NCBI GenBank assembly: GCA_965200815.1
Contig: OZ241387.1
Span: 17,112-81,111 of the forward strand
Length of the DNA: 64,000 nucleotides
Reading direction: 5' to 3'
Source: Terriglobus sp.
GTDB lineage: Bacteria > Acidobacteriota > Terriglobia > Terriglobales > Acidobacteriaceae
Shown here: positions 29,710 to 64,000 of the stretch, in pieces
Position numbering within the stretch: the stretch's first letter is position 1
How the letters are laid out: each line of letters begins with the position of its first letter
Notes under the pieces: generated by a model
Seen by the model: the letters and a program-made list of their open reading frames with translations, nothing else
Database searches by the model: none
What the model was told of the DNA's origin: nothing
Translations under genes and position numbers: made by a program

Positions 29710-29715
29710 CGAGCC

Positions 29716-47792: not shown

Positions 47793-49432
47793 GGACGATC
47801 GCCGCTCTCACCCTTTTGGCCATCCTCGCGGCAGGGCCGGTTCATGCCCATGCCGGGCACGACGATGCGCCTCCACTCGCGGCGACCGCAACGACCCTGC
47901 CGCGTGCGGAGGCTCACTCGGACCTGTTCGAACTGGTCGCCAGGATCGAAGGCGGTGCCGTGATTATCCACCTGGACCGCTTCGCGACCAACGAACCCTT
48001 GGGCAACGCCACAATCGAGGTAGCCGAAGGCACCGAGACCTCTACGGCGCAGCCACAGCCGGATGGGACGTATCGACTGGCGGCCCCCTGGATCGGTGCC
48101 CCAGGCCACCATGAGCTGGTGTTCACCGTGGCGGCCGGAGATGAAGCCGACCTGCTGAGTGCCAGCATCGACATCCCGGCAGACGATCACGGCGCGGCAC
48201 CCGCGACGGGCGCACGGGCGCGAATGCAGGCGGCGCTCGGCGACAGCCGGGTTCCCGTGGTCGCTGGATTGGGCTTCCTGCTCGGCGCTTTTACCATCCT
48301 GCTGTTCCAGGCGCGTGGCCGAAGGCGAGCGGCCATGGGCGGGATGGCACTGCTCTCCGGCGTGCTGGTGGCTGGCGTCGCGTTCGCCCATGCCGGGCAC
48401 GATGGTGAGGAGGCACCGCCACCTGCCACGGACGCACCGCGGCGCCAACCGGACGGCAGCGTCTCCATGCCAAAGGATGCGCAGCGCCTGCTGGCCATCC
48501 GCACCGTGCTGGCAGGTTCCAACGATGCGACCCGAACCGCTCTGGTCATCGGGCAAGTCATCGCCGACCCCGAAGCCGCCGGACGCGTGCAGACCAGCCA
48601 GCCCGGTCGTGTCGGCCCCGGCAAGAAGGGGCTCGCCCGTCTGGGTCAGCGGGTCGAGAAGGATGACGTGCTCGCGATCGTGACCCCATCCATCGGCACC
48701 GTCGAGCGCGGTGGCGTGCAGGCGCAGGTGGCGGAACTGGACGGGGCGGTTCGCTTGGCGCAGGCCAGGCTCTCCCGCCTTTCGGCCCTGGCGGGCAGCG
48801 TCGCGGGTAAGGAAATCGACGATGCCCGGCTGGAGCTGGACGGTGCCCGCAGGCGGCGTGCCGCACTTGCACCTTCGTTGGCCCGTGCCGAGGTGCTGGT
48901 CGCCCCGGTGACCGGCGTGGTCTCGGTGGTGAATGCCCAGGTCGGCGCGGTGGTCGACAGCAAGGACATCCTCTTCGAGATCGTCGACCCGAACCGGCTT
49001 TGGGTAGAGGCGGTGCTGACGGACCCGAGCCTCGCCGGACAGGTTCGAGGCGGCTCCGCCATCACCGCAGATGGCACGACGATCGCCGTGACGTTCATCG
49101 GCCGCGGCATGACCCTGCGGCAGGGTGCGGTACCGCTGCAATTCCGTATTGACGCGCCGCCGCCGGGTCTTTCTGTCGGCTCTCCCGTCACCGTCGTCGC
49201 CGAATTGGATGGTAGGGAGCACGGGATCGCATTGCCGCGCGCAGCGGTGGTGCGGCAGGCGAATGGCACGGCGGCCGTGTGGGAGCACGTCTCGGCCGAG
49301 CGCTTCGTGGCCCGTTCTGTCCGTGTGCGACCACTGGATGCAGGACGCGTGCTGGTGCTGGGCGGGCTCGCGGCGGATCCGCCGCCGCGCATCGTGGTGC
49401 AGGGTGCCGAGTTGCTGGGTCAGGTGCGCTGA
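47789..49432 (+). CDS. RND periplasmic adaptor fused to an N-terminal accessory domain (duplicated signal peptide plus HAGHD motif)
   Basis: Domain order: MRTIAALTLLAILAAGPVHA-HAGHD, a ~130-aa domain, a TM segment, RGRRRAA, MGGMALLSGVLVAGVAFA-HAGHD, then the MFP core (lipoyl hairpin, beta-barrel). Confidence 0.8.
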   Translation: MRTIAALTLLAILAAGPVHAHAGHDDAPPLAATATTLPRAEAHSDLFELVARIEGGAVIIHLDRFATNEPLGNATIEVAEGTETSTAQPQPDGTYRLAAPWIGAPGHHELVFTVAAGDEADLLSASIDIPADDHGAAPATGARARMQAALGDSRVPVVAGLGFLLGAFTILLFQARGRRRAAMGGMALLSGVLVAGVAFAHAGHDGEEAPPPATDAPRRQPDGSVSMPKDAQRLLAIRTVLAGSNDATRTALVIGQVIADPEAAGRVQTSQPGRVGPGKKGLARLGQRVEKDDVLAIVTPSIGTVERGGVQAQVAELDGAVRLAQARLSRLSALAGSVAGKEIDDARLELDGARRRRAALAPSLARAEVLVAPVTGVVSVVNAQVGAVVDSKDILFEIVDPNRLWVEAVLTDPSLAGQVRGGSAITADGTTIAVTFIGRGMTLRQGAVPLQFRIDAPPPGLSVGSPVTVVAELDGREHGIALPRAAVVRQANGTAAVWEHVSAERFVARSVRVRPLDAGRVLVLGGLAADPPPRIVVQGAELLGQVR

Positions 49433-52400
49433 TGGGCCGCTTATTCGGCGCGCTGGTCCACGCCAGCCTGCACAACCGACTGTTTGTGCTCGTCGCGGCG
49501 GCGCTGCTGGTCGCTTATGGCGGCTTCGAGCTGAGCCGAATGCCTGTGGACGTGTTCCCGGACCTGAACCGCCCCACGGTCACGCTGATGACTGAGGCCG
49601 AGGGCATGGCGCCGGAGGAGGTGGAGCAGCTCGTCACCTATCCGCTGGAAACCGCCATGAACGGCATGCCCGGCGTGGAACGGGTGCGCTCCGTCTCCGG
49701 TGTGGGCCTGTCCATCCTCTATGTGGAATTCGCCTGGGGCACCGACCTCTACAGGAACCGCCAACAGGTCGCCGAGCGCATCGCTTCCGTCCGCGAGCAG
49801 CTTCCGGCAAGCGTGGTGCCTCAGATGGGTCCAGTCACGTCCATCATGGGCGAGATCATGCTGGTGGCGATGACGGCGGAAGACGTGAGCCCGATGCAGG
49901 TGCGGGAGCTCGCGGACTTCACGGTGCGTCCCCGCCTGCTGGCGATCCCCGGCGTGGCCCAGGTCATCCCCATCGGTGGCGAGGTGCGGCAGTATCAGGT
50001 CACGCCCAACGTCCCGCAGATGGCCCGGCTCGACATCTCGCTCGACGAGGTGGAGCGTGCGGTGAAGCAGTTCGGCGCCAACACCGGCGGCGGCTTCGTC
50101 GACCAGAACCGGGCGGAGTACGTCGTTCGCAACATCGGGCGCACCACCCGCATCGAGGATCTCCGCAGCCTGGTGGTCACGATGCGCGCCGGGCAAGCCA
50201 TCACCCTGGGCCAAGTGGCCACGGTGGACTTCGCCGCCCGTTTCAAGCGCGGCGACGCGGGCGCCAACGGCAAGCCCGTCGTGATCCTCTCCGTCCAGAA
50301 GCAGCCCGGTGCCGACACCGTGCCGCTTGCCAGGGCGGTGGAAGCCGCGCTGGCGGATTTGACCCGAACGATGCCGCAGGGTGTACGGGCCGACCAAGTG
50401 CTGTTCCGCCAAGCCAACTTCATCGAGGCCAGCATCGGCAATGTGGAGGAGGCGTTGCGGGATGCGGTGATCGTCGTCGCGGTGATCCTGTTCGCTTTCC
50501 TGCTGAACGTGCGGACCACGCTGATCTCGCTGCTGGCGATCCCGATCTCCATCCTGTTCACCGTGCTGGTGTTCCGGCTCTCCGGTCTGTCCATCAACAC
50601 CATGACCCTTGGCGGCCTCGCCATCGCCATTGGCGAGCTGGTGGACGATGCCGTGGTTGATGTGGAGAACGTCTTTCGTCGGCTGAAGGAGAACCGCGAG
50701 GCGGGCAATCCTCGCCCCGTGCTGGTGGTGGTGGCGGCGGCGAGCCAGGAGGTGCGGTCCGGCATCATCTACGCGACCATCATCGTGATGCTGGTGTTCC
50801 TGCCCCTGTTCGCGCTGCAAGGTATCGAGGGCAAGCTGTTCGCCCCGCTGGGCATCGCCTACATCGTCTCGATCCTGGGCAGCCTGGTCACCTCGGTCAC
50901 GGTGACGCTGGTGCTCTGTTACTACCTGATCCCCGGCATGAAACGGCTGACAGAGCGGGAGAGCCCGATGGTCCGAGTGCTGAAGCGCTGGGACACCCGA
51001 CTGCTTCACTGGTCGTTCGGTAAGTTGGCGCCACTGTCTTTCGTGGTGCTGGCCCTGGTCGGCCTGGCCGCAGCCGGTGCGTGGTTCCTCCCCCGCAGCT
51101 TCCTGCCGCCCTTCAACGAGGGCACGCTCACCGTCAGCATGACGTTCCAGCCCGGCATCAGCCTGGCCGAGAGCAACCGCTTGGGTGGCATCGCGGAACG
51201 GCTGATCATGCAGGTGCCGGAAGTGAAGTCGGTGGGACGCCGGGTCGGCCGGGCCGAGCTGGACGAACATGCGGAAGGTGTCCACTCGACCGAGATGGAC
51301 GTGGACCTGCGGCCCGGTCGGCCCAAGGAGCAGGTGTTGGCGGAGTTGCGCCAGCGTGTCGCCGTGCTGCCCGCCGCGTTCAACATCGGCCAACCCATCG
51401 GACATCGACTGGAACACCTGCTGTCCGGCGTCAACGCGGCGATCGCGGTCAAGCTCTACGGCGACGACCTCGACACGCTGCGAGGGTTGGCCGAGGACCT
51501 GCGCACGCGCATGGCCGCGGTTCCTGGCCTGGTGGACGTGCTGGTGGAACGCCAGGTCCGGGTGCCGCAACTTCAGGTTCGCCTGGATTACGATCGCGCC
51601 GCGCTCTACGGCGTGACCCCGGCGGCACTGGCTGACAGCTTAGAGAAGCTGACCAACGGCAAGGTGGTCAGCCAGGTGGTCGATGGGCAGAAGCGGTTCG
51701 ACGTCGTCCTCCGGCTCGCCGACAGGGAGCGTACGACCGAGGCGCTGGCTGGACTCCTGGTGGAAACACCGAAAGGCCGGGTTCCGCTGCGGACCTTCGC
51801 CGATGTGGAGGACACGGACGGACCCAACCAGGTCCTGCGTGAGAACGGGCGGCGCCGCATCGTCGTGCAGGCCAACACCGATGGCGGCGACATGGGGCTT
51901 GCCGTCGAGGGCATCCGCGCGGCGGTGGGCAAGCTCGCCCTTCCGTCCGGCTACTCGGTCGAGGTCGAGGGCACGTTCCAGGCGCAGGAGGAAGCGGCCA
52001 AGTTGATTGGCGTGCTGTCTCTGGTCAGCCTGGCGATGATCTTCACGGTTCTCTACTCGCGCTATCGCTCGGCGGTGCTGGCGCTGCTGATCATGGGCAA
52101 CGTGCCACTGGCCTTGATCGGCTCCGTGGCGGCGCTGTGGATCGCGGGCCAGCCGCTCTCGGTAGCCAGCATGGTGGGCTTCATCACCTTGACCGGCATC
52201 TCGGCCCGCAACGGCATCCTCAAGGTCAGCCACTACATCAACCTCGTGCTGCACGAAGGCTGCGCCTTCGGGCCGGAGATGGTGGTGCGCGGCAGCCTGG
52301 AGCGGCTGACCCCGGTGCTGATGACGGCGTTGTCGGCCGGGTTCGCACTGCTTCCGCTGATGCTAGGCGCCGACGCACCGGGCAAGGAGATCCTGCACCC

Positions 52401-52551
52401 CGTGGCGATCACCATCTTCGGCGGCCTGGTCAGCGCCACCCTGCTCGACACGCTGCTGACCCCCGTCCTGTTCCTGCGTGTCGGCCGCAAACCACTGGAG
52501 CGGCTGATGCAGCCGGATGCAGACGGCCTCCGGCCCGCCGAGGCCTTTTGA
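49432..52551 (+). CDS. HME-RND permease (CzcA/CusA family), system 3
   Basis: 1039 aa. MGRLFGALVHASLHNRL...MPVDVFPDLNRPTVTLMTEAEGMAPEEVE, and a TM4 motif AIGELVDDAVVDVEN. The start overlaps the MFP stop (TGATG). Confidence 0.9.
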   Translation: MGRLFGALVHASLHNRLFVLVAAALLVAYGGFELSRMPVDVFPDLNRPTVTLMTEAEGMAPEEVEQLVTYPLETAMNGMPGVERVRSVSGVGLSILYVEFAWGTDLYRNRQQVAERIASVREQLPASVVPQMGPVTSIMGEIMLVAMTAEDVSPMQVRELADFTVRPRLLAIPGVAQVIPIGGEVRQYQVTPNVPQMARLDISLDEVERAVKQFGANTGGGFVDQNRAEYVVRNIGRTTRIEDLRSLVVTMRAGQAITLGQVATVDFAARFKRGDAGANGKPVVILSVQKQPGADTVPLARAVEAALADLTRTMPQGVRADQVLFRQANFIEASIGNVEEALRDAVIVVAVILFAFLLNVRTTLISLLAIPISILFTVLVFRLSGLSINTMTLGGLAIAIGELVDDAVVDVENVFRRLKENREAGNPRPVLVVVAAASQEVRSGIIYATIIVMLVFLPLFALQGIEGKLFAPLGIAYIVSILGSLVTSVTVTLVLCYYLIPGMKRLTERESPMVRVLKRWDTRLLHWSFGKLAPLSFVVLALVGLAAAGAWFLPRSFLPPFNEGTLTVSMTFQPGISLAESNRLGGIAERLIMQVPEVKSVGRRVGRAELDEHAEGVHSTEMDVDLRPGRPKEQVLAELRQRVAVLPAAFNIGQPIGHRLEHLLSGVNAAIAVKLYGDDLDTLRGLAEDLRTRMAAVPGLVDVLVERQVRVPQLQVRLDYDRAALYGVTPAALADSLEKLTNGKVVSQVVDGQKRFDVVLRLADRERTTEALAGLLVETPKGRVPLRTFADVEDTDGPNQVLRENGRRRIVVQANTDGGDMGLAVEGIRAAVGKLALPSGYSVEVEGTFQAQEEAAKLIGVLSLVSLAMIFTVLYSRYRSAVLALLIMGNVPLALIGSVAALWIAGQPLSVASMVGFITLTGISARNGILKVSHYINLVLHEGCAFGPEMVVRGSLERLTPVLMTALSAGFALLPLMLGADAPGKEILHPVAITIFGGLVSATLLDTLLTPVLFLRVGRKPLERLMQPDADGLRPAEAF

Positions 52552-52981: not shown

Positions 52982-53392
52982 ATGATGCATTTCTTCAAGC
53001 GCACTGCCGTTGCCCTCGCGACGTTGACTGTCGTTGCCGCCGCTCTGCCCGTTCACGCCCAGCAACCTGCCGCTGCGGCGCCGATGAAGCCGACGCCGGG
53101 CATGGCGCCAATGGCTCATTCCGGCGGCGGCACGGCTGCACCGGACTCGCTGATGGGGGCGATGGACAAGATGTCGAAGGACATGGCCGCGGTCCCCATG
53201 ACCGGGGACTCCGACAGGGACTTCGCGGCGATGATGATCCCGCACCACCAAGCCGCCATCGACATGGCCCGCTACCAACTCGCGCATGGCAAGGATCCCG
53301 TGATGCTCAAGCTAGCTCGGGCTGTGGTGGCAGCACAGGAGAAAGAAATCAGCGAGATGAAGCAGTGGCTTGCTAGGCATTCTACTCGATGA
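52982..53392 (+). CDS. DUF305-family periplasmic protein
   Basis: AAGGAG then ATG 52982, with a signal peptide. DRDFAAMMIPHHQAAIDMA and AQEKEISEMKQWL are typical of DUF305. The linker is Met-rich. Confidence 0.75.
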   Translation: MMHFFKRTAVALATLTVVAAALPVHAQQPAAAAPMKPTPGMAPMAHSGGGTAAPDSLMGAMDKMSKDMAAVPMTGDSDRDFAAMMIPHHQAAIDMARYQLAHGKDPVMLKLARAVVAAQEKEISEMKQWLARHSTR

Positions 53393-53418
53393 TTAGCGTT
53401 ACGATAAATGATGCAGAC

Positions 53419-53452
53419 GGCAGTCAGCGCGGCCATGGCCGCGCTGACTGCC
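53419..53452. terminator. Perfect 16-bp palindromic hairpin after the DUF305 gene
   Basis: ggcagtcagcgcggcc at ggccgcgctgactgcc, 27 nt after the stop. Confidence 0.6.
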
Positions 53453-53831
53453 AATCGCTTCTGTTATGGTCTATAAACATTAAGATGGCCGCTTACACGG
53501 GTCTTGCGTTCCATTGCTCTTCAAACCCGATACTGTGAGGCTAATCGCGGCAGCATTCCCGAAATACGATCCACACTGTGCGAAAACCCGGTTCTAGATT
53601 TGGCGAACAGAATATCATGCTGATTGGAGCCGCTTCTTCCACGGATTGCTGGCAAGCACCGCTCTAAAATCCAGTATTTTTGATCGAACGGCTCAGGAGG
53701 GCAGAAGGTCATTCTCCAAACTTTTTGCGACTAGGAGTTTTCGCACGGTCTGCGATCCTTTTCGAGAAAAGCAGAGGCGCCGACGCCGGGCGGTGAAGGT
53801 CTGCAAAGTATGGATTGCAGCGAATTCCATC

Positions 53832-55292
53832 CTTAGCTCGACTTTGGCCAATTCTGACGATTTTGGGCGGCAGAGCGGGTCTGGCGGTAGTTTGTCGCGT
53901 TCCCGCCAAGAGACGTCGTCATGCCCCCTCTGTCATCCCGTTTCGCCGGGGTCATCCTAAGCTTCGCACCGCTGTTCCTTCAACGCAGTTGGCGTCACGC
54001 CGAGGTGTTGCTGACCGGCGCCATCCTGGTGCCGGGCCAGCGCACGGTGACCAGCATCTTGCGCATCATGGGCCTCAGACAGGAGCGGCGGTTCGTGAAC
54101 TACCACCGCGTGCTGAACCGGGCGGCCTGGTGCCCGCGGGCGGCATCGCGCACCCTGCTTGGTCTTCTCGTCGCAGCGTTCGCGCCAAGAGGCCCCCTCG
54201 TGCTGGGGATCGACGACACGATAGAGCGCAGGCGCGGTAAGCGGATCGCGGCCAAAGGCATCTACCGTGACCCCGTGCGATCCAGTCATGGGCACTTCGT
54301 CAAGGCAAGTGGCCTTCGCTGGCTCAGCCTCATGCTGCTGGTCCCGGTTCCGTGGGCCAAGCGCGTGTGGGCTTTGCCGTTCCTGACAGCGTTGGCTCCC
54401 TCGGAACGATATTGCCAGGAGCGCGGACAGCGCCACAAAAAGCTGACGGACTGGGGACGCCAGCTCGTGTTGCAGGCCCGCCGCTGGCTGCCCGGCCGTG
54501 AGTTGGTCGTGATCGGCGACAGCGCCTTCGCCGCTCTGGAGTTCCTGGCCGTCACCGGCCGCCACGGGGTGACCTGTGTCACACGCTTGCGGCTGGACGC
54601 GGCCCTCTACGATCCGGCATCGCCGCGTCGGCCTGGCACCAACGGACGGCCCCGCACCAAGGGCAGGCGACTGGCGACGCTGTCCGAGATCCTGACCGAC
54701 CCGGCGACGCCCTGGCAGCGCGTCACCGTGCCGGGCTGGTATGGTGACGGCGAGCGCGAGATCGAGGTCAGCACCGACACCGCGGTCTGGCGGCACAGCG
54801 GGATGCCCATCGTGCCGATCCGATGGGTGCTCGTCCGGGACCCCGTAGGCCGGTTCGAATCTCAAGCTCTGCTCTGCACCGACCTGGCCCAGGATCCCGC
54901 CCAAGTCCTGCGCTGGTTCGTCCAGCGCTGGCAGGTCGAGGTCACGTTCAGGGAAGTCCGCGACCACCTGGGTGTGGAAACGCAACGCCAGTGGGCGGAC
55001 ACGGCCATCGCGCGCACGACACCCTGCCTGCTTTGCCTGTTCTCGGTCGTGACCCTGCTTGGAAAGCAGCTCACGCCGTATACCCGCCGAGCTACAGCTA
55101 CCAGCGCCTGGTAACGCAAGATACGCCCGACCTTTGCCGACACCCTCGCCGCCGTGCGCCGAGATATTTGGAAGGAAAGGGGTTTCGGCACATCCAGTCG
55201 AACCGCCCGCATGATAAAACTCAGGCCAGCAATCCGCAACGCCATCACCTACGCGCTTTGCCACGCAGCCTGATGGCCAAAGTCGAGCTTAG
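53832..55292 (+). mobile_element. Insertion sequence (~1.46 kb) with 19-bp terminal inverted repeats; IS4/IS701-like DDE transposase
   Basis: IRL is cttagctcgactttggcca (53832-53850). IRR is tggccaaagtcgagcttag (55274-55292), 18 of 19 complementary. A single transposase frame fills the interior. I could not identify target-site duplications. Confidence 0.75.
53921..55273 (+). pseudogene. DDE transposase interrupted by an in-frame TAA at 55112-55114
   Basis: The 397-aa ORF ends ...TRRATATSAW*. The same frame continues RKIRPTFADTLAAVRRDIWKERGFGTSSRTARMIKLRPAIRNAITYALCHAA to TGA 55271-55273, which abuts IRR. DDE-type motifs are present (LGIDDTIERRRGKRI, VIGDSAFA, QRWQVEVTFREVR). Confidence 0.7.
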
Positions 55293-55398: not shown

Positions 55399-55647
55399 CT
55401 CGTGCCGGCCTGTCCCCTCGGGTTGCTGCGGTCTGAGCCACGGGGCCGGGCGCTCCTACCCCCGCTTTCCCTGCGGGAAAGCGCCTTCGGTTCGGCATTC
55501 TCGCTCAGGCATCCGGGCCGTGCCGTGCGCAGGGCCAAGGCCCCGCTTCGTCGCAACCCGAACGCCCTCCCTCACATGCCTCAGAGATAGGAGCGCCCGG
55601 CCCCGCGTCTCTCTTCGACCGCACCCGAGGGAACAAACCGGCACGAG
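55399..55647 (+). repeat. About 250-nt compound imperfect hairpin preceded by a purine-rich tract, 40 nt upstream of ssb
   Basis: The outer stem is ctcgtgccgg(55399-55408)/ccggcacgag(55638-55647). An inner perfect 17-bp stem is cggggccgggcgctcct(55441-55457)/aggagcgcccggccccg(55589-55605). A sub-hairpin cgctttccc-tgc-gggaaagcg also forms. The purine-rich leader at 55321-55390 resembles those of repeat copies 1 and 2. Confidence 0.6.
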
Positions 55648-55686
55648 CCGGAAGCCCTGGGGAAGAGAGATGAAGAGGGTCAGACC

Positions 55687-56157
55687 ATGGCGAAGTTCGT
55701 CAACAAGGTGCAGTTGCTGGGTAACCTGGGTGCGGACCCGGAGGTGCGGAACTTCCAGAACGGCGGGCGGGTGCTGACCTTCAGCCTCGCGACCAGCGAC
55801 ACCTGGAAAGACCGCCACAGCGGCGAGCGGAAAGAGCGGACCACCTGGCACCGCGTTTCGATTTTTGCCGATGGCCTGATCGACGTGGCCGAGAAGTATC
55901 TGAAAAAGGGCAGCAAGGTCCTGGTTGAGGGCAAGCTGGAGAACCGCGAGTGGACGGACGGTGAGGGCGTGAAGCGCACCTCCACCGAGGTGGCGCTGCG
56001 CCCGTTCAGCAGCGACCTGGTGCTGCTGGGCGACGCCCCGGCGAGCCGGAGTGAGAGCGCACCGCGCCGGGAGCGCCAGACGATGGGAGCCGGTGCCGGC
56101 GGACGTGGCTACAACCTGCCGAAAGACAACGATCTGGACGAATCCATCCCGTTCTGA
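55687..56157 (+). CDS. ssb: Single-stranded DNA-binding protein
   Basis: OB-fold N-terminus MAKFVNKVQLLGNLGADPEVR...TTWHRV, a Gly-rich linker, and an acidic tip DNDLDESIPF. Confidence 0.9.
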   Translation: MAKFVNKVQLLGNLGADPEVRNFQNGGRVLTFSLATSDTWKDRHSGERKERTTWHRVSIFADGLIDVAEKYLKKGSKVLVEGKLENREWTDGEGVKRTSTEVALRPFSSDLVLLGDAPASRSESAPRRERQTMGAGAGGRGYNLPKDNDLDESIPF

Positions 56158-56273
56158 GGCCCGGGTTCGGGCGCCCTACGGGGCGCCGCTCCCACCCCTT
56201 TCTCCCTTACCAAAAGGCTCGGTCTCATGATCCGCCAGTACTTTGCCCACGTTTCCAGGGCGGCACCAATCCA

Positions 56274-56651
56274 TTGCGGGTCGGTGTCGTCGCCACCGGC
56301 TCGATCTTCTACCTGCAGGATGAGGGCTTCTTCCGCGACCGCCACGGCGGCCGGGCCATTTGCCGCACGCCGTGGATCGTCGAGAGCTTCCTCAACGGTC
56401 AGTGCCATGCCGCCCGACGCGATCCGGCAACGGGTCGCTGGCTGGACACCTTCGTCAGCGGCCGATCCGACATGGCCGTGGTCCGCTCGCTGCGCGATGG
56501 CCGCCACCAGCAGGTCGCGGTCCGCATCCTGCAGCTGCACGACGATCTCGGGCTCTCGAAGGAGCCCACGCGCTACCCGCCTTTGCCGGACCTGCGGTTC
56601 TACCGCCGGCAGGCGCGCTGCCAGCCGATGCCGATGCGGCGAGCTGCCTGA
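56274..56651 (+). CDS. Hypothetical protein (125 aa, TTG start)
   Basis: My hand count gives GC3 of about 88% in this frame against about 72% at codon position 1. This favours the + frame over the exactly antisense ORF 56109..56540. There is no clear SD. Confidence 0.5.
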   Translation: MRVGVVATGSIFYLQDEGFFRDRHGGRAICRTPWIVESFLNGQCHAARRDPATGRWLDTFVSGRSDMAVVRSLRDGRHQQVAVRILQLHDDLGLSKEPTRYPPLPDLRFYRRQARCQPMPMRRAA

Positions 56652-56701
56652 CAGCAGCCTTGCAACCCCTCCTTCCGATCGCCCAATCTAGCGAGCACAC
56701 C

Positions 56702-57031
56702 ATGGCCGCCATCACCATCAATCTGCCGCTCTACCAGGTCCTGACCGAGTTGAAGGTCGGGGAGGACCGCGCCCGACAAGCGGCCGAGGCCTCGATCCCG
56801 GACCTCTCGGCCTTCGCAACCCGCGACGACCTCAAGATTGCCCTGGACGGCCTGGAGCAGCGGCTCGGCCGCACCATCGCCGAGAAGACGGACGGGCAGA
56901 CCAAGTGGATCGCGGCCATCGCCGCGAGCACGATCATCGTTCTGCTCAGTGGCTCGGCCTGGTTGTGGCCGCCGACCCGCTTCGCCGGGCCGCCCAGCCC
57001 GCCCGCGGCCGTCACTCTTCCCCAACACTGA
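56702..57031 (+). CDS. Hypothetical coiled-coil protein with C-terminal TM anchor (109 aa)
   Basis: MAAITINLPLYQVLTELKVGEDRARQAAEA...WIAAIAASTIIVLLSGSAWLW. Confidence 0.55.
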   Translation: MAAITINLPLYQVLTELKVGEDRARQAAEASIPDLSAFATRDDLKIALDGLEQRLGRTIAEKTDGQTKWIAAIAASTIIVLLSGSAWLWPPTRFAGPPSPPAAVTLPQH

Positions 57032-57089
57032 CCTGATCGCCCCGGACACTTCGCGCCGGCGTCTCTCGATCCTGCCCTGCTGACGGGCG

Positions 57090-57105
57090 CCCGGCGAAAG
57101 CCGGG
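57090..57105 (+). terminator. GNRA-loop hairpin cccggc-gaaa-gccggg followed by attgtt
   Basis: Read directly; it lies 59 nt after the stop at 57031. Confidence 0.4.
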
Positions 57106-57217
57106 ATTGTTCAGCACCCCTTATCAGGAGTTTTCCCATGACCCGCACGCGCTTCGGCACGGGCACACGCGCTGCTGCGCGCGTGCGCCGCCTCTCCCCC
57201 TCTCCGGGAGAGCCGTC

Positions 57218-57451
57218 ATGCTGATCGCCGAGATGGAGCGGCAGAGCTGCCTGGCCAGCGCCGAGCAGTGGCGTCGACAGGCCGAACAGATCCGCGAACA
57301 CGCAGGGCGCAGCTATCTGCAGCCTCGGCAGCGCGACACGCTGCTGGCCGAGGCGGACGCCTGCGACCGGCAAGCCGATTGGTGGGTGGCTGGCGCAGAC
57401 GACTACGTGCCGGCCGCGGCCACTGCATGCCTGGCAGCCCTGCTGCGGTAA
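57218..57451 (+). CDS. Hypothetical protein (77 aa)
   Basis: GGGAGAG lies before ATG 57218. Translation begins MLIAEMERQSCLASAEQWRRQAEQIREH. The start is overlapped by a 28-codon upstream ORF (57138..57224) that has its own AGGAG. Confidence 0.45.
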   Translation: MLIAEMERQSCLASAEQWRRQAEQIREHAGRSYLQPRQRDTLLAEADACDRQADWWVAGADDYVPAAATACLAALLR

Positions 57452-57643
57452 AGCGGAACGATCGGCAACGCTCCACGTCGTTACCCAAGCGCAAACGTGA
57501 TTGCGCCTGGCAATTACATCACCGCTTCTGGCCGGTCTGCCGCGTTCACAAGCAACGCAAACCAACGATCGGCTGAGCTCCACGACAATCAACCTAAATT
57601 GCGAGCTCGCAGCCTCGTTGCCGAGCAGCTCAGGAGGTCCACG

Positions 57644-57922
57644 ATGGTTAAGTTCAGCATCCGGCTGGTGCAACAAATCACGGAGCAGGGCTCCGGAGAT
57701 TTCATCATCGAGGCGTCAAGCGCCGAAGCTGCAGCCGGTATCCTTTTGGCGGCCTACAAGGCAGCTCAGGCCGAGGACTCCAGCGTCGTCGAGCTGCTGG
57801 ACGGTCAGGTGCAGCTGATTGAGCGCGCGGAGGTGCTGGGCCGCAGCGTCTCCTTCAAGTTGCTCGATGAGGATGGCGCCGAGGTTCGCTTGGTCACGGC
57901 ACCAGATGGTCGGGGCTCGTAA
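57644..57922 (+). CDS. Hypothetical protein (92 aa)
   Basis: AGGAGG at 57632-57637, then ATG 57644. Translation begins MVKFSIRLVQQITEQGSGDFIIEASSAEAAAG. Confidence 0.55.
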   Translation: MVKFSIRLVQQITEQGSGDFIIEASSAEAAAGILLAAYKAAQAEDSSVVELLDGQVQLIERAEVLGRSVSFKLLDEDGAEVRLVTAPDGRGS

Positions 57923-58151
57923 GCTCCTCCAACGGTTTGCAGCCTGCTGCGTCGATAAGCCAGTTCTTCTTCATGTCGCCCGAGCTATCTGGGTCAACGA
58001 TGATCTGAGTGGCGGAGGCTGCGGCACGTCGCGGTCCGCTTCAACCTGACGGTGCTCCACTGTGTTGCGCCCCCTTCGGGGTGAGGCGGGCCGCGTCGCG
58101 CCGCCGGTCGCATCCGCCGATCACGGCAGACCCACACAGCGGAGCGACACC

Positions 58152-58331
58152 ATGAAGACACTGACCTACCTCAAGAAGTTTTCCCGCAGCGCCAGCCGAT
58201 CCATCAAGCGCCTGCTGCGCCACCTCACCGGCAAGAGCATCGTCAGCGCCACCCTCACGCTCTCCATTCCCCCATTCATCAAGCTGGAACTCGGCTTCAA
58301 GCAGGAGGTTGAGCAGCACGGGGCCGCTTAG
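58152..58331 (+). CDS. Small basic hypothetical protein (59 aa)
   Basis: ATG 58152. Translation MKTLTYLKKFSRSASRSIKRLLRHLTGKSIVSATLTLSIPPFIKLELGF. GC is locally lower, and a terminator follows immediately. Confidence 0.4.
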   Translation: MKTLTYLKKFSRSASRSIKRLLRHLTGKSIVSATLTLSIPPFIKLELGFKQEVEQHGAA

Positions 58332-58339
58332 CAGCCCAA

Positions 58340-58363
58340 GGCCGCCGGCTTTGGCCGGCGGCC
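58340..58363 (+). terminator. Hairpin ggccgccggc-tttg-gccggcggcc
   Basis: A perfect 10-bp GC stem 9 nt after the TAG at 58329-58331. Confidence 0.55.
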
Positions 58364-58478
58364 TCTACCCTGCTGCCCATGGTGGAGAGAGCGTAGTGCT
58401 GTGCCCCTGAACGGGCTATTCTCACCAGACGAAGTTCGCTGGGCCAACAGCCCGAACCATCACCAAAGGAGAGCGACG

Positions 58479-58769
58479 GTGGCTGACCTACTCGATCGTT
58501 CGACGGAACTGGATATGAGCGGGGTTGGCGACGTCGCGGCCGCGATCAGCACCTTGGCTTGGACGCACGGCGTCACCGCCGCAGCCGAGCCGGTGGACGC
58601 CTTCGCCGACGCCACGGCTCGGCTGTGCGACACGGAGGTCACGTTCGACCATACCGAGCGACTGCTCCTTGGGCTGGCGCGCGGCGGGTTCGTCACCGAC
58701 GAGCAGCGCTTCGCGCTGCACGCAGCCTACTTGCAGCAGCTGGCCGGTGACGTTCGACCCGTTCGGTGA
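58479..58769 (+). CDS. Hypothetical protein overlapping the Fic gene start; candidate cognate antitoxin or partner
   Basis: AGGAGA lies 6 nt before GTG 58479 (ORF open from 58401). The protein is 96 aa and its 3' end overlaps the fic GTG by 23 nt. It contains TAAAEP, a near-match to the (S/T)xxxE(G/N) Fic-inhibitory helix motif. Confidence 0.45.
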   Translation: MADLLDRSTELDMSGVGDVAAAISTLAWTHGVTAAAEPVDAFADATARLCDTEVTFDHTERLLLGLARGGFVTDEQRFALHAAYLQQLAGDVRPVR

Positions 58770-59403
58770 CCGGGACACGCGTGGCTACCTGCGCAATCGC
58801 CTCGGAACCAATGACGCCGCCCTGATCTCCCGGCTGGAGGCGCACGCCTTCTCCGCCAACGTGCTTCCGGCCCTCACCGCCCTGAAAGCAGCGCCGACAG
58901 TCAGCTACGACCAGGTGCTCGACACGCACCGCCGGCTGTTCAGCTCCGTCTACCCCTGGGCTGGGCAGGATCGAGCCACGCTCGCGCCTGACATCGCCAT
59001 CGCCAAGGGCGGCGTGGCCGACCTGTTTTCACACCCGGCCGATGTGCGCCGCGCCACCGATTATGCGCTCGGCATGGGCCTGGATGCCCGCACTCTGCGG
59101 GCCAAGCCGGGGGAGGTGTTCGGCGCTTTGGCGTACGCACACCCCTTCTTGGAAAACAACGGCCGCACGCTCATGACGGTGCATGCCGACCTCACGCGAC
59201 GTGCCGGGTTTCACGTCGACTGGACCGGGATCGCAAAGCCGGAGTTCCTCGCCGCACTCACGGCCGAACTGCGCCAGCCGGGCTCCGCCCTCGATGCGCT
59301 GCTGCTGCCGCACGTCCGGCCAGGCCCATTGCCAATCGAGCGCGCCGCGGTGAGCTTGGCGCAGAACCCGGGGCTCAACCGTTCCGGACCCTCGCCGTCC
59401 TGA
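58747..59403 (+). CDS. Fic/DOC-family protein with a non-canonical active-site motif
   Basis: VTFDPFGDRDTRGYLRN..., THRRLFSSVYPWAGQDR, and the Fic motif region HPFLENNGRTLM (canonical HPFx[D/E]GNGRxxR). I chose GTG 58747; the ORF is open from 58525. Confidence 0.8.
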   Translation: MTFDPFGDRDTRGYLRNRLGTNDAALISRLEAHAFSANVLPALTALKAAPTVSYDQVLDTHRRLFSSVYPWAGQDRATLAPDIAIAKGGVADLFSHPADVRRATDYALGMGLDARTLRAKPGEVFGALAYAHPFLENNGRTLMTVHADLTRRAGFHVDWTGIAKPEFLAALTAELRQPGSALDALLLPHVRPGPLPIERAAVSLAQNPGLNRSGPSPS

Positions 59404-59593
59404 GTAGATCAGCCCTGACCTGATCCGTTAGATCGCCAGCGTCAGCTGCTGGTTGCCAAGTCCGGGGCTGGGTGAGGAGAGTCCAACACGGGGGAAGATT
59501 ACCAGCCCTGGCCGGCGCTGCGCATGGGCTTCCTTTCCGGTCGCCCGACGATCCGGCGTGGCGCCCTGGCCCAGGGCGTCCTACCCTGACGCC

Positions 59594-60295
59594 ATGTGTG
59601 GTCGCTTTGCCCTGTCCCAGACGCCTGCCGCCCTTGCCAAGGTGTTCGGCACCCACAACGCTGTTCCCAACTTCCAGCCCAACTGGAACTTGCCACCCAG
59701 CCAGCCAGCGCCTGTGGTGCGGCACAATCCCAAGACGGGCGAGCGGAGCCTGGACGTGCTGCGCTGGGGCCTGATCCCGCACTTCGAGAAGGACCCTGCC
59801 CACGCCCGCATGCTCAACAACGCCCGGGCCGAGACGGTAGCCAAGCTGCCGAGCTTCCGCGGTGCCTTCGCGTCCCGGCGCTGCATCGTCCCGGCCGATG
59901 CCTTCTACGAGTGGAAGCGGGACGGCAAGCTGAAGCAGCCTTTCGCCATCGCCCGGGTGGATGGGGCACCGCTCGCCTTCGGCGGCATTTGGGAAAGCTG
60001 GACAGACCCGGCGAGCGGCGACATCACCCGGAGCTTCGCGATCGTCACCACGGAGGCAAACGGGACCATGGCGCCGATCCATGATCGCATGCCCGTCATT
60101 CTGGAAGCTTCTGACTGGCCGGTGTGGTTAGGCGAGGAAGAAGGCGATCCGAAGTCGCTGCTGCGTCCGGTTGCCGACAGCGTGCTTCGGACGTGGCCGG
60201 TAAGCACGGACGTGAACAGCGTGCGGCATAAAGGGGCCGAGTTGTTGCAGCCGATGCGCGACGAGGCGGTAGAGGGTGGCCCGAACTCGGCATGA
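59594..60295 (+). CDS. SOS-response-associated peptidase (SRAP, YedK/HMCES family)
   Basis: N-terminal MCGRF (catalytic Cys2). Also WGLIPHF, NARAETV, RRCIVPADAFYEW, PIHDRMPVIL. Confidence 0.9.
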   Translation: MCGRFALSQTPAALAKVFGTHNAVPNFQPNWNLPPSQPAPVVRHNPKTGERSLDVLRWGLIPHFEKDPAHARMLNNARAETVAKLPSFRGAFASRRCIVPADAFYEWKRDGKLKQPFAIARVDGAPLAFGGIWESWTDPASGDITRSFAIVTTEANGTMAPIHDRMPVILEASDWPVWLGEEEGDPKSLLRPVADSVLRTWPVSTDVNSVRHKGAELLQPMRDEAVEGGPNSA

Positions 60296-60328
60296 GATAT
60301 CGTCGAGGGATTGGGTCCTAACCCTATC

Positions 60329-63304
60329 TTACCTCTCCAGCCGAACACGGAGACGTCTTGCTCTCTCGCGGAACGCGGGTTCCCCCCCTTCAAGCACCTT
60401 GCAGACGAGCGTACGAATATTGGCTCGCTCTAATCCGCCGGAAAGGTAGGAGATGGGCGGTAGCGCGTCGCTCGCGTGCGGGCCGACGTTCGCCACGATG
60501 ATCTGATCGGCGTCGGTGTTGATGACCAGATTAGCGTTGTGCGTAATCATGATCACCTGTCGACGGGACTTGGCTTCGGTGAAAAGACCCACGAGCTCGT
60601 CGAAGATAGATTGCGGGTCCAAGTTCTCTTCGGGCTGGTCTATGATCAACGGGCGGTCATCGGCTTTGTCGAGGGCCAGATAAAGCAGAAGCAGGACGAT
60701 CCCGCGCGTGCCGGGCGACAGCTTGCTGATGTCCGTCCCGTCATACCGGACACTGTAGTTGATCGTGATATGGTCCGTGCTGTAGAGCCATTTGGCAAAT
60801 TGCTTGAGCCAAAGGCGGTATTGGGTAGGGTCCGTCTTTGCAACACGGGCTTGTTCGAGCAAATCGCTCTGGTGCGCGTCTCGAAAAGATTTCATGGCAG
60901 CTGTAACCTCAGCGCCATCACCCGCTTCCCAGGCCTTCTTTAAGTCCTGGTCTGCAATCTTCTGCAGCGATCCAGATCCTTTGAATTGGCCTTGACGCCG
61001 GAGATCAATTAACTCGTCTTCCCCTCGCTTTGCCCACCGCGCAACATCGGCGGTTCGTGTGACGGTGAAGGAGAGTTTGTTCAGGGCTCCGCTTGCGTTG
61101 TTTAACCTCTCTTGAATCGGAGCGTAGAGCAGCTCCAGGACGCTTTGTTCGTTCAGCACATAGTCAAATACCAGCTTGTAGGATGCTTCACGCCGGGCAT
61201 GAAGTTCAGCCGCGCGTGCTTTGGCCCCCTGGGCGTCCGTAAGCTTCTGCCGCAGTCCGGTTAACAGCTCGTTCTCTTGCACCAAGCGTGTCGAAAGGGC
61301 CGCATATCGGTCAGTAGTAGCTTTGTCGACGCTGATCAGCCCGTTCAAGCGCGTAATCTCAGCCTCCAGCTTCGCAAGTGGCTGGCGCGTCAAGTCATCA
61401 CCTTGGCTGATATAGGACATCTTGTTGTCGGCAAGCTCAGCTGGCGGCGTTCCCTTCCAATCTTTCACCAGCTTCGTGGCCTGTCGTAGGTTCTGAGCGA
61501 GAAGGCTGTCCACATCCCCTACGTAGTCCGTAAGGAAGCTCTTCCATGTATCTATCTCGAGGCCACTTGCCGCGTGCAGGCGTTGTACCTCCCGCAAAAT
61601 GGCTGGGGCTTTGTTGTTGCGGCGATCGACTACTTCATCCTGCATCGTTAGCAGGTCGTCGACCCTAAGATTGCTGTGCCGCAAGTGACCGCGGACGGTC
61701 TCCGCGGCGGCAGTAAGGGCTTGCAGCTGTCCCACCCGCTCCTGGCTGCCTTTCGCCACCAAACGGGCTCGCTCTGCTTCTGTCCTCCGTATCAGCGCTT
61801 CCTTATCTCTGATCTGAGACTGGTAAGTCGCTGCCAGCTTGTCCTTTTCTAGCTCGGTGCCGATCTGGTCTGAGAGATCGGTTAGGGCTTCCTCTTCGCG
61901 CTGCCGCGCCTGGCGATATCTCCTCGATCGCAGCTCCAACAGGTCGTGGAAATCTACCGCGCCATCGCGGTCTGAGGCCGAATGAGACTCAAAGATTACG
62001 CGCTCAATCTCTCGGAGCAGCGCGTCTGTCATACCGTAGGACGAGCAGAGGTTCTCGACGAATTGCTGGGAGAGGTAACGTGCCCTTGGGTAGCTCTCGG
62101 AGTCGAGTTGCTCGGTGAGATGCCGCCTTTCCTCGTCCCCGGACGCCCACTTTAATGTCACCCAGTTCTGGTTCAGAAACTCACGGGCACGCCAGAGGAA
62201 GGACTGTTGGTTCTCGGGCGACGGACCCGCGTCGCAAGCGCGTGCGATAATATCGGCCAGTGCTGTCTTCCCCGATCCCCGCGCACCAATGATGGCAACT
62301 AAACCTGGGTTTAAATTGATATGCGGGGTCATCGCCCATGGGGCATTATGCAGGGTGATGGAGGCAATGACGTCTGATGGGCACGTTCCAAGCGGCGGCG
62401 CGTCACCCACATGAGCACGGCTTTCAGGGTCGATGTATGCCTGACGCAGGGCATCGAAACTTGGGTCGCCTTTGATCCAGGTGTAGCGGTTCTCGGCCGG
62501 CTTGCCGACCATGCCGAGCGTGTGGGCATCACACCCATGAATACAAGGCTTGACCCCGTTGTAGTCTGCCTTCAGCTCGTCAACTAGGACGCTCCGCCTC
62601 CCGAGCCAGAACTCCCTCTGTGCTACCGAGGAAGCTAGAATTACATGCGCGAAGCTTTCAACGCTTTTGCGATTTGTAGCCTCCGCCGCGTCACGCATGC
62701 CGCCGGTGCCATCGTCGCCGCCAGCAACAGCGATTAGGATGTTCTTCTGTGCCCACTCATGCCCTTGGTACACCGTGCGCAGCTGGTCGAAAGTCACCTT
62801 GAACTGTCGTGCGCCAAGTTCAAGCGCAGCCGGTGTATTGGGTGCCGCACCTGATGACTCTCCGAGCCGCATCAGCTCGTCACGCGTGCATCTGAAGATG
62901 TCACCAGGAGTCTGGTATGTGAGGTTCGCTAAAAATCGCCGGGCTTCGGTAATATGTTTCGGATCTTCTGGGCTAATTAAAAGGTGCAAGTTAGTCCAAT
63001 TACCTTTAACAGTCCCAAAGTTAAGCCTTGTTTCTATGTTGGCAAAAACTAGTTTGCAATTACTAAGGCGACCTGCCGCCTTTGCCTCAAGGACCTTCTC
63101 ATAGCACTCGAGGCAGTAGTAATCAGTGATACCTAGAACTTCGATCACCGGTGTCGCGGCCTCAAGCGCCTTCAGATATTCATCCCAGACATCGGGGCCA
63201 CGAAACTGGTTCGCCATGATCGTGCCGGGTGCATGAATGTGAGGGTCCCATCGCCGCCAACGTGATCCCGAGTCCTCCGGCAAGGCATCCATAACCATGT
63301 GCAA
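60329..63304 (-). CDS. PHP-domain phosphoesterase fused to a Rad50/SbcC-like ABC ATPase with long coiled coil (991 aa)
   Basis: N-terminal PHP motifs WDPHIHAPGT (DxHxH) and HGCDAH. Walker A is AIIGARGSGKTALADII. About 450 aa of E/R/L/Q/A-rich heptad-like sequence follows. The C-terminus carries a signature-like LSPGTRG, Walker B LIIDQPEENLD and H-loop ITHNANL. Spot GC counts are about 52-60%, against about 65-68% in the flanks. Confidence 0.8.
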   Translation of the reverse strand: MHMVMDALPEDSGSRWRRWDPHIHAPGTIMANQFRGPDVWDEYLKALEAATPVIEVLGITDYYCLECYEKVLEAKAAGRLSNCKLVFANIETRLNFGTVKGNWTNLHLLISPEDPKHITEARRFLANLTYQTPGDIFRCTRDELMRLGESSGAAPNTPAALELGARQFKVTFDQLRTVYQGHEWAQKNILIAVAGGDDGTGGMRDAAEATNRKSVESFAHVILASSVAQREFWLGRRSVLVDELKADYNGVKPCIHGCDAHTLGMVGKPAENRYTWIKGDPSFDALRQAYIDPESRAHVGDAPPLGTCPSDVIASITLHNAPWAMTPHINLNPGLVAIIGARGSGKTALADIIARACDAGPSPENQQSFLWRAREFLNQNWVTLKWASGDEERRHLTEQLDSESYPRARYLSQQFVENLCSSYGMTDALLREIERVIFESHSASDRDGAVDFHDLLELRSRRYRQARQREEEALTDLSDQIGTELEKDKLAATYQSQIRDKEALIRRTEAERARLVAKGSQERVGQLQALTAAAETVRGHLRHSNLRVDDLLTMQDEVVDRRNNKAPAILREVQRLHAASGLEIDTWKSFLTDYVGDVDSLLAQNLRQATKLVKDWKGTPPAELADNKMSYISQGDDLTRQPLAKLEAEITRLNGLISVDKATTDRYAALSTRLVQENELLTGLRQKLTDAQGAKARAAELHARREASYKLVFDYVLNEQSVLELLYAPIQERLNNASGALNKLSFTVTRTADVARWAKRGEDELIDLRRQGQFKGSGSLQKIADQDLKKAWEAGDGAEVTAAMKSFRDAHQSDLLEQARVAKTDPTQYRLWLKQFAKWLYSTDHITINYSVRYDGTDISKLSPGTRGIVLLLLYLALDKADDRPLIIDQPEENLDPQSIFDELVGLFTEAKSRRQVIMITHNANLVINTDADQIIVANVGPHASDALPPISYLSGGLERANIRTLVCKVLEGGEPAFRERARRLRVRLER

Positions 63305-63421
63305 ACCGATCGACCTGCTGATTGGTATCTGACAACGTCTTCATAGCAAGAGGCAGTAACTTACCTACAACTCAGCTAGCAGCAAGCATGCTGCGGGACG
63401 GCTACCGGCAATGTGCCGTCA

Positions 63422-64000
63422 TCAAAAGTCACGGCTTTCCGGCATCCTAGCCTTCGGCCGCGCTGATCCGGGTTCTGCGTGCCGGACTTCATCACCGCGC
63501 AGCAGAGCTACATCGTCCCAACGCGCTCCACCGTCGGATCGCATCAGCCCGTTCAGCAGGTCTGAGCGGTCGACCAGCTTGCGGCAGATCAGATGTGTGA
63601 TGGGCACCTCTGCGTGCTCGATCTCTCGTTCCACCCGGCCTTCGGCAATCAGCAGCCGGGCGCCAATCATCGCCGCCCGGTCCCGCGCACCTACATCGGC
63701 GTAGACAACGAGGTTTGCCGTGCCAAACTCGTCCTCCATGGTGATAAACACGATGCCCTTGGCCGTGCCCGGCCGCTGCCGCATCAGCACCAAACCCGGT
63801 AGCTTGATCCAGGTCCCTGGCCGCGCTGTGCCAAGCCGGCGCGTGTCATGCAGGCCGAGGCGCTGCAGCTGCTCGCGCAGCAGCGCCAGCGGATGTTGGC
63901 GCAGGCTGAGCCCGGTTGCCATGTAGTCCAGCACGGTCGATTGCCCATCCGCTTCCGCCGGCAGGGCCGGGGCGAGCTCTTGGATAAAGGACGGCTCGCC
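63422..64000 (-). CDS. dnaE2: Error-prone DNA polymerase DnaE2 (ImuC), C-terminal fragment (5' part outside window)
   Basis: The frame is open to the window edge. VLDYMATGLSLRQHPLALLREQL...LVLMRQRPGTAKGIVFITMEDEFGTANLVVY is the OB-fold/C-terminal region typical of DnaE2. Confidence 0.8.
   Translation of the reverse strand, partial: GEPSFIQELAPALPAEADGQSTVLDYMATGLSLRQHPLALLREQLQRLGLHDTRRLGTARPGTWIKLPGLVLMRQRPGTAKGIVFITMEDEFGTANLVVYADVGARDRAAMIGARLLIAEGRVEREIEHAEVPITHLICRKLVDRSDLLNGLMRSDGGARWDDVALLRGDEVRHAEPGSARPKARMPESRDF

Follow-up and report, generated by a model that had tools for sequence, protein, structure and literature searches.

What does the solitary gene on the minus strand near the end of a 64,000-nucleotide stretch of Terriglobus sp. 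DNA (contig OZ241387.1, positions 17,112 to 81,111; this whole stretch is the window referred to below) encode, and does it act on its own? An earlier note on this DNA had described the gene as a PHP-type nuclease fused to a Rad50-like ABC ATPase and had proposed it as a candidate single-gene system for defence or DNA processing. Its product is a further member of a large curated family, the TrlF family. The architecture is therefore not new, as the note had implied it to be, since it was already named as the validated anti-phage protein Ppl and as NCBIfam family NF045780. The proposed role fared better, because the protein is homologous to Ppl over its full length and no conserved partner was found in 38 homologue loci. 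The gene is a stand-alone, horizontally acquired one for a PHP nuclease-ABC NTPase (nucleoside triphosphatase) of the TrlF family, and we consider it probable, with moderate confidence, that the protein works as Ppl does.

Membership in the family was indicated by the NCBIfam model NF045780, "TrlF family AAA-like ATPase", which the protein matched with 681.3 bits (E=3.6e-204; curated cutoff 350), residues 13-985 aligning on model positions 2-943 of 944. On this score and coverage we assign it to the family. A partial NCBIfam match was also obtained to the 'Spaf_1101 family', and the annotation pipeline PGAP likewise gives the name TrlF family to plasmid homologues that are 50-59% identical. 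The phrase 'TrlF family' was not found in the literature searched; the name comes from the temperature-restriction locus trlR-trlF-trlG of Photorhabdus laumondii (PMC7554251). By hidden Markov model score and coverage, the window protein belongs to the same family as Photorhabdus TrlF, the namesake of NF045780, and both had been auto-annotated merely as ATPase or histidinol phosphatase. Their settings differ: Photorhabdus trlF shares an operon of three genes with those for a regulator and for TrlG (AlbA_2/HATPase_c_4), whereas the gene in the window stands alone, as do 30 of its close relatives. No AlbA_2 or HATPase_c_4 (TrlG-like) domain was detected among the window ORFs (open reading frames) scanned, and in place of an adjacent TrlG and a small TrlR regulator the neighbours are SRAP and dnaE2 genes.

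The relationship to Ppl was analyzed with the annotated Ppl of a Klebsiella oxytoca plasmid as the comparison sequence. Ppl is said to have been first reported by Gao et al. 2020, and the primary paper on its mechanism is reportedly that of Xu et al. (Mol Cell 2026;86:180). BLASTP aligned the two proteins in an N-terminal region (26% identity, residues 13-353, E=6e-11) and in a C-terminal one (36% identity, residues 841-985, E=1e-21). When the family profile was compared with Ppl by hhalign, a single alignment of 797 columns joined profile positions 22-998 to Ppl positions 3-893 (probability 99.6%, E=2e-23). Judged by these alignments, the TrlF-like protein and Ppl are homologous along their whole length. 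They have in common the PHP residues H22, H24, E91, H107, D259 and H261, and the ABC residues of Walker A, Q413, S863/G865 (the 'SPG' signature), DQPE and H922. Ppl also shows the same domain order (PHP, ABC N-lobe, helical arm, ABC C-lobe) and is likewise a single-gene system borne on plasmids. However, identity between the two is only 23-36%, and the TrlF clade is about 100 aa longer than Ppl, with extra segments in the PHP domain and in the arm.

The note had identified a PHP module from short motifs. Because the Pfam PHP model PF02811 misses the domain (no match at E<=1), we base the PHP assignment on the fold, the motifs and the homology to Ppl. We modelled the N-terminal 310 residues separately with AlphaFold2 (AF2; predicted local distance difference test score, pLDDT, 84.4; predicted template modelling score, pTM, 0.86) and compared the isolated model with the PDB by Foldseek. 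The top 20 matches were all PHP-fold proteins; the best was the metal-dependent phosphoesterase 3e0f (E=3.3e-6), and others included RNase AM (9etk/7ug9) and the PHP domains of Pol III alpha and PolC. The domain is thus predicted to adopt the PHP (distorted TIM-barrel) fold. PDB searches by sequence, using the protein or the family profile, returned ABC-head matches and none for the N-terminal domain, and no Ppl structure was detectable in the PDB by sequence or fold. Stand-alone PHP exonucleases (RNase AM/YciV, bacterial PolX, the PHP domain of Pol III alpha), which are the best structural matches of the N-terminal domain, have the HxH...E...H...DxH ligand pattern in common with the TrlF-like protein. 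Unlike it, they are without an ABC head, and sequence identity to them is 11-16%, with TM-scores of only 0.4-0.6.

Candidate metal ligands of the PHP domain are H22, H24, N32, D61, E91, H107, H220, D259 and H261. Column conservation was computed over 54 homologues of 55-91% identity, among which H22, H24, D61, E91, H107, H256, D259 and H261 are invariant and H220 is kept in 52. Position 32 is Asn in the sub-clade of the window protein and Asp in 45 of the 54. PHP motif II reads TDYY (with Tyr62) in the TrlF clade versus SDHN in Ppl. Both position 32 and the motif-II His would correspond to the third metal site known from trinuclear YcdX, a site that may be degenerate in the TrlF clade.

Pfam covers the ABC head alone, with AAA_21, SMC_N and AAA_23. 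A whole-protein AF2 model built on the 54 homologues (mean pLDDT 82.5) matched SMC, JetC, MukB, Rad50 and RecN heads with their coiled coils in the PDB, the best match being the SMC head 5xei (E=4.9e-9). The stretch that the note had called heptad-like corresponds to long helices predicted in this model by DSSP at residues 452-514, 521-564, 643-656, 661-692 and 694-736. They would form an arm with ascending helices (452-564), an apical region (565-642) and descending helices (643-736); the apex holds no cysteine and so has no zinc hook. Walker A, Q-loop, signature, Walker B and H-loop were all found, as was a coiled-coil insertion between the lobes, as in SMC/Rad50-type proteins. Two features of that type were absent, the catalytic Glu after the Walker B Asp and a hinge or zinc hook at the arm tip. 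In Rad50 alignments, Q890 stands opposite the Walker-B catalytic Glu, so that Walker B reads 'DQPE'; this Gln is invariant across TrlF homologues and also present in Ppl. G340-T347 and Q413 are invariant among homologues as well, and the C-terminal lobe carries a C-terminal EGGxxAF motif that Ppl has too. The reading given in the note, with a phosphoesterase of PHP type joined in cis to an SMC/Rad50-like ABC head whose two lobes are parted by a coiled coil, therefore holds.

Ppl is a validated one-gene anti-phage system with an ATPase and a PHP domain (PMC11482910). According to a 2026 review (PMC12904381), it is a single-stranded DNA 3'-5' exonuclease with two activation requirements: NTP on its PHP and NTPase domains inhibits it until phage-induced nucleotide depletion relieves the inhibition, and it senses 3'-OH ends generated by phage homing endonucleases. 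The mechanism is also summarised in PMC13434339. From Ppl and from general ABC/SMC knowledge, a similar sequence of events can be drawn for the TrlF-like protein. Two protomers would dimerise by way of their heads, the NTP being sandwiched between Walker A on one protomer and the signature motif on its partner. As long as NTP levels are normal, the bound nucleotide would keep the PHP 3'->5' exonuclease off. Upon infection or entry of foreign DNA, NTP would fall and free 3'-OH DNA ends would appear, and the PHP domain, once released, would degrade the invading DNA. Since an invariant Gln occupies the catalytic-Glu position, the Q890 head would sense nucleotide by binding rather than work as a fast-hydrolysing motor.

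Other ATPase-nuclease systems resemble this protein in part. In SbcCD/Mre11-Rad50, an ABC head is likewise split by an antiparallel coiled coil and works together with a metal-dependent nuclease on DNA ends. However, that nuclease is calcineurin-like (Mre11/SbcD) and a separate subunit, whereas in the TrlF-like protein it has a predicted PHP fold and is fused in cis; the TrlF-like arm is short, about 100 residues per strand, without the CxxC zinc hook, and Gln replaces the catalytic Glu. No gene for an SbcD/Mre11 calcineurin-like partner was present in the window, nor was there one as a recurrent neighbour in the 38 loci. OLD, Gabija GajA and PARIS AriA are also defence-associated AAA_21-type ABC ATPases coupled to a nuclease. 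The AriA and GajA models gave weak matches to the C-lobe (GajA over about 65 residues, E~1e-3), and similarity is limited to the signature/Walker B region of about 80 residues. Their nuclease is a TOPRIM domain, fused to the ATPase or supplied by a partner, whereas that of the TrlF-like protein would be the N-terminal PHP domain; no TOPRIM domain appeared among the Pfam matches at E<=1. The suggestion that PHP takes the place of a TOPRIM or calcineurin-like nuclease is in keeping with these results.

As to how the gene came to its place, its composition, its surroundings and its nearest relative agree. Its GC content is 0.567 (0.643 at third codon positions, GC3), and it forms the lowest-GC 3-kb stretch within the window (mean 0.659, sd 0.029); spot counts in the note had already shown a lower GC than in the flanking genes. 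Five neighbouring genes (RND pump, insertion sequence (IS) transposase, SSB, Fic and SRAP) have GC of 0.65-0.69 and GC3 of 0.80-0.86; a DUF305 neighbour is the exception among the flanking genes, with GC3 of 0.664. The backbone that carries the TrlF-like gene as cargo is that of a Roseomonas-like plasmid or integrative element. This backbone shows 73-81% nucleotide identity to plasmids of Roseomonas (Acetobacteraceae) and comprises genes for a PAPS-reductase, a 1,725-aa methylase-SNF2 helicase, a large ParB, SSB, Fic and imuABC. In plasmid unnamed3 of R. mucosa HV2 (L013) the order is ParB, SSB, small ORFs and Fic, followed by a convergent error-prone polymerase gene. By blastn, window 55416-59381 aligned with L013 5986-10398, and window 63426-64000 with L013 10457-11031. 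The segment between the two blocks in the window holds the SRAP and TrlF-like genes (Table 1).

The nearest DNA relative (L003) encodes a protein 79% identical and has a similar ParB/SSB backbone, but nucleotide similarity is confined to 60324-63370, that is, to the gene and about 66 bp upstream of it. Because of the composition, the synteny break with respect to the Roseomonas plasmid and this confined similarity, the lateral acquisition of the gene as a one-gene unit, already suggested in the note, holds. Since the similarity takes in the upstream stretch, which is conserved between the two, the gene moves as a one-gene cassette that brings along an upstream region of its own. Flanking repeats or target-site duplications were sought around 59382-63425 and 60324-63370; only short repeats at chance level were found, and they were rejected as an integration signature. 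They included a 12-nt perfect inverted pair at 59360/63468, about 0.5 of which would be expected by chance (an estimate).

The ORF gives 991 aa when read from TTG 63304, and all the motifs quoted in the note were found in it at their coordinates. In the closest DNA relative this TTG is replaced by TCG, while the ATG-GTT-ATG after it is kept, and the 91%-identical homologue P0001 has 989 aa. For these reasons the true start is probably ATG 63298, which would give 989 aa. The whole spacer at 63305-63421 has a GC of 0.53, and a scan for sigma-70 consensus sequences upstream of the gene gave no match, a result that is uninformative for a GC-rich alphaproteobacterial element. As no terminator was predicted between the preceding dnaE2 gene and the TrlF-like gene, transcripts of the imuA-imuB-dnaE2 operon could also read through into it.

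Table 1. Coordinates of the TrlF-like gene, its encoded domains and motifs, and the associated segments of the window.
Feature	Residues	Window positions	Strand	Basis or remark
TrlF-family PHP + ABC/SMC-like ATPase gene		60329..63304	-	ORF list, NCBIfam NF045780
N-terminal PHP-fold phosphoesterase/nuclease domain (predicted)	~13-305	62390..63268	-	AF2 model, Foldseek, Ppl alignment
ABC head, N-terminal lobe	312-450	61955..62371	-	Pfam AAA_23 + SMC_N, Rad50 alignment
Long helical insert, ~285 residues (predicted)	452-736	61097..61951	-	DSSP of AF2 model
ABC head, C-terminal lobe	744-985	60350..61075	-	Pfam AAA_21 E=6.6e-13
WDPHIHAPGT	19-28	63221-63250	-	PHP motif
HGCDAH	256-261	62522-62539	-	PHP motif
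GARGSGKT	340-347	62264-62287	-	Walker A
YLSQQF		62060-62077	-	Q-loop (Q413 invariant)
LSPGTRG	862-868	60701-60721	-	ABC signature
LIIDQPEENLD	886-896	60617-60649	-	Walker B
ITHN	920-923	60536-60547	-	H-loop
Upstream non-coding stretch travelling with the gene, presumed promoter + 5' untranslated region		63305..63370	-	Similarity to L003
SRAP + TrlF-like segment, 4,044 bp		59382..63425		Absent from L013, which has 58 bp in the same gap

The family is large. More than 4,186 matches were obtained among 90%-identity clusters; the best 120 of these are nearly all about 950-1,020 aa long, and their identity levels off at 55-60%. The N-terminal domain alone matched 2,586 representatives at 50% identity, and most of the 150 matches listed for it are about 900-1,010 aa, the shorter ones looking like fragments. 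Homologues occur in a Planctomycetota metagenome-assembled genome (P0050), in Terricaulis (P0118), in an Acidobacteriota metagenome-assembled genome, and on plasmids of Alpha-, Beta- and Gammaproteobacteria. Genes about 30% identical, which PGAP also names TrlF family, are carried by hundreds of plasmids of Klebsiella and E. coli. Searches of phage records gave 7 matches, all weak, and IMG/VR yielded 17 viral or prophage loci. One of the phage records, Microcystis phage Mwe-JY31 (PP438423.1, 22 kb), encodes at 3404-6109 a TrlF/Ppl-like protein of about 900 aa near a ParA-like gene, with 30% identity over about half of the query; this record (L045) may be a plasmid-like or satellite element and not a typical phage.

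To see the company that the gene keeps, we assembled a set of 38 homologue loci out of plasmid, genome, metagenome and IMG/VR sequences. The close clade (at least 38% identity) accounts for 30 of them. Sampling went through plasmid records, exact-protein look-ups and IMG/VR, and a single-protein scan of genome contigs supplied one locus. All ORFs within 4 kb of the gene were clustered. No recurrent partner emerged among the 38 loci, and no neighbour family was present in more than three, in agreement with the absence of a partner gene that the note had reported. The families found in three loci were IS66, with its three components, and two unannotated clusters that are probably IS- or integrase-like. 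IS66 was the sole annotated neighbour family to recur in three loci: a complete element (TnpA, TnpB and transposase) lies 0.4-2.6 kb from the TrlF-family gene in the unrelated loci L003, L007 and L015.

The contexts, on plasmids and integrative elements among others, were heterogeneous but of the kinds usual for accessory, mobile and defence DNA. Neighbours related to mobile elements included ParB/DUF932, relaxase and type IV coupling protein, ArdC, integrases, IS66 and Tn3. Defence or toxin-antitoxin neighbours were CBASS, type I restriction-modification, an MmeI-type enzyme, VapBC, RelB/YafQ, CcdAB, Abi and AbiEii, and further ones of defence type were NACHT, caspase, TIR, DUF4365, GIY-YIG and T5orf172. 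Within the enterobacterial TrlF-like clade, which is about 30% identical, an Abi family protein of about 350 aa adjoins the TrlF-like gene on Klebsiella plasmid pWSD411_5 (L015 8935-9963) and on Yersinia ruckeri pYR4 (L016 4566-5615), in differing orientations, and could be a clade-specific partner there.

Several points weigh against a Ppl-like defence role. The defence function of the TrlF clade is drawn by analogy, from homology and genomic context; Ppl has a phage phenotype, whereas the TrlF clade has been compared with it by sequence. Although Ppl was the best PADLOC match (104 bits), the good alignment with the PADLOC model is limited to the C-terminal 140 residues or so (839-985). The NCBIfam model NF042955, 'anti-phage protein Ppl', likewise reached 117.8 bits, with its best stretch at 835-985, and its equivalog cutoff of 1000 was not attained. 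In the Photorhabdus trl locus every selected mutation fell in trlG and none in trlF, and this only genetic study of trlF gave no phenotype attributable to it (PMC7554251). Because of the motif-II Tyr and N32, the metal stoichiometry and the substrate of the TrlF clade could differ from those of Ppl. Finally, the enrichment of defence genes was judged by eye in about 25 neighbourhoods without a background control.

Among the alternatives to the Ppl-like reading, the protein could be a weapon or accessory in conflicts between mobile elements rather than an anti-phage system, attacking competitor DNA or serving plasmid establishment, with the free 3'-OH end of the transferred single strand or rolling-circle intermediates as targets. 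By tblastn, 528 plasmid records had a match, and 387 of these are conjugative. The gene often lies beside relaxase, coupling protein, ParB, SSB, ArdC or DUF932 genes, in transfer or leading regions, and in the window it sits in an SSB...Fic...imuABC plasmid backbone. SMC-like fold relatives such as Wadjet and Lamassu act on plasmids, and the matches in phage records are few and weak. However, the closest validated relative, Ppl, is anti-phage, and location does not discriminate between the two roles, as plasmids and integrative elements collect every kind of defence system. The family is also found on the IMG/VR viral or prophage contigs and in chromosomal contexts. On balance this alternative seems unlikely.

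A related idea, which we regard as quite improbable, is that the TrlF clade is functionally distinct from Ppl and consists of conjugative-element nucleases that guard their host element against rival mobile DNA. Three features set the clade apart: identity of 55-60% over about 990 residues is kept across Alpha- and Gammaproteobacteria, Acidobacteriota and Planctomycetota; the TrlF head has a natural Gln for the catalytic Glu and may be purely a sensor of nucleotide level; and the PHP site, with Tyr for the motif-II His, may have lost part of the third metal site. If this were true, the free 3'-OH of incoming single strands or rolling-circle intermediates would be attacked, and the 'temperature restriction' of Photorhabdus might be autoimmunity of a TrlF/TrlG variant.

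The two genes that flank the TrlF-like gene could point to a role in repair. On one side is the SRAP gene (Pfam E = 8.6e-70), convergent with the TrlF-like gene, the two stop codons being 33 bp apart. On the other side is an error-prone polymerase gene (dnaE2) on the same strand, whose 3' end lies 117 bp upstream. The 170-aa fragment of its product at the window end, called dnaE2 in the note, had no Pfam match; the gene shows 79% nucleotide identity to an annotated error-prone DNA polymerase gene of a Roseomonas plasmid. ORF 49279-52551, considered as a second dnaE2, was rejected, as it encodes an RND pump. With no terminator predicted between dnaE2 and the TrlF-like gene, the protein might be an accessory nuclease of DNA repair or the SOS response, a cis-fused analogue of SbcCD/Mre11-Rad50 acting with imuA-imuB-dnaE2 and the SRAP abasic-site peptidase; the closest fold is indeed that of Rad50/SMC heads, and a 68%-identical homologue on a metagenome contig (L004) adjoins SRAP, 7 kb from a DnaE2-type polymerase.

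Yet the Roseomonas plasmid has the Fic-dnaE2 junction without either SRAP or the TrlF-like gene, whose GC is unlike that of both neighbours. SRAP occurs in 2 of the 38 loci, and dnaE2 is nearby only in the window and L004. As the SRAP proteins of these two loci are 29% identical while the TrlF-like proteins are 68% identical, and the orientation differs, the adjacency was not co-inherited, and a functional SRAP-TrlF pair was rejected. Homologues are moreover scattered on plasmids of many phyla and not placed in conserved chromosomal repair loci, so that a repair role is improbable. In L004 a TIR_2 protein and a methyltransferase are encoded at 5455-6672, between the DnaE2-type polymerase and the SRAP/TrlF-like pair, which suggests that more than one element has, beside its mutasome cassette, a variable spot for cargo or defence genes.

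That the gene is an orphaned component of a trlR-trlF-trlG locus, inactive or non-functional without its partners, is very improbable in spite of the family being named after a three-gene operon with a phenotype from trlG mutations only and of the lack of a TrlG-like protein among the window ORFs scanned, because no recurrent partner was seen in any of the 30 close-clade loci, where the gene is as a rule solitary, Ppl itself acts as a single gene, the ORF is intact with an identical protein on an independent metagenome contig (99.4% nucleotide identity), and the invariance of the catalytic motifs over the 54 homologues points to purifying selection on a working protein.

Several features elsewhere in the window were noted in addition. 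A heavy-metal resistance island of about 44 kb (11300-55600) lies between ParB (9456-11249) and SSB (55687-56157). Since these genes are only about 800 bp apart in the related R. mucosa plasmid, the island represents another and far larger insertion of cargo into this backbone. Within it are three OEP-HlyD-RND operons (20861-27370, 39863-45701 and 46314-52551), two HMA P-type ATPase genes (13501-15936 and 30206-32395, both on the minus strand), a sensor kinase gene (18712-20097) and ars-type ACR3/ArsH/MFS genes (35288-38402). A second patch of lower GC at 27000-31000 (about 0.59 in 3-kb windows) may be a mosaic piece of this island; it includes genes for a DsbD_TM protein (28972-29709, minus strand) and signal peptidase II (29716-30258, minus strand) and the start of a P-type ATPase gene. 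A tRNA-Gly (anticodon acc) predicted by ARAGORN at 15629-15707 on the plus strand, inside the P-type ATPase ORF 13501-15936, is probably a false positive. At the junction of the island and the SSB module, after a low-GC dip at 53250-54000, there is a DDE_5-family IS transposase gene (53921-55114); a DDE_5 transposase gene is also found directly downstream of the TrlF homologue in L021.

The 1,725-aa backbone ORF (3559-8736, plus strand) encodes an N6-methylase (Eco57I-like) fused to a ResIII/SNF2 helicase, and its similarity to the DISARM DrmD and BREX BrxH models is at the domain level only. An overlapping 1,847-aa ORF (3091-8634, minus strand) has no Pfam match and is probably a high-GC artefact. 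The Fic-domain protein adjoining SRAP (58525-59403) matched the PADLOC single-gene candidate PDC-S04 (83.5 bits, E=4e-24), and at the Fic position the R. mucosa plasmid has just a short annotated Fic ORF.

The copy analyzed here adds little by itself; its value is that of a clean example of the insertion of a single-gene cassette into a known plasmid backbone. Together with it, thousands of relatives of about 990 aa to which automated pipelines give the labels 'AAA family ATPase', 'EcfA2' or 'AbiEii toxin' can be interpreted as fusions of a PHP nuclease and an NTPase like Ppl. The large TrlF clade includes genes on many conjugative plasmids of clinical Klebsiella and E. coli. If the clade defends as Ppl does, it would be a common obstacle, borne on plasmids, to phages or to other plasmids, with a bearing on phage therapy and on plasmid spread.

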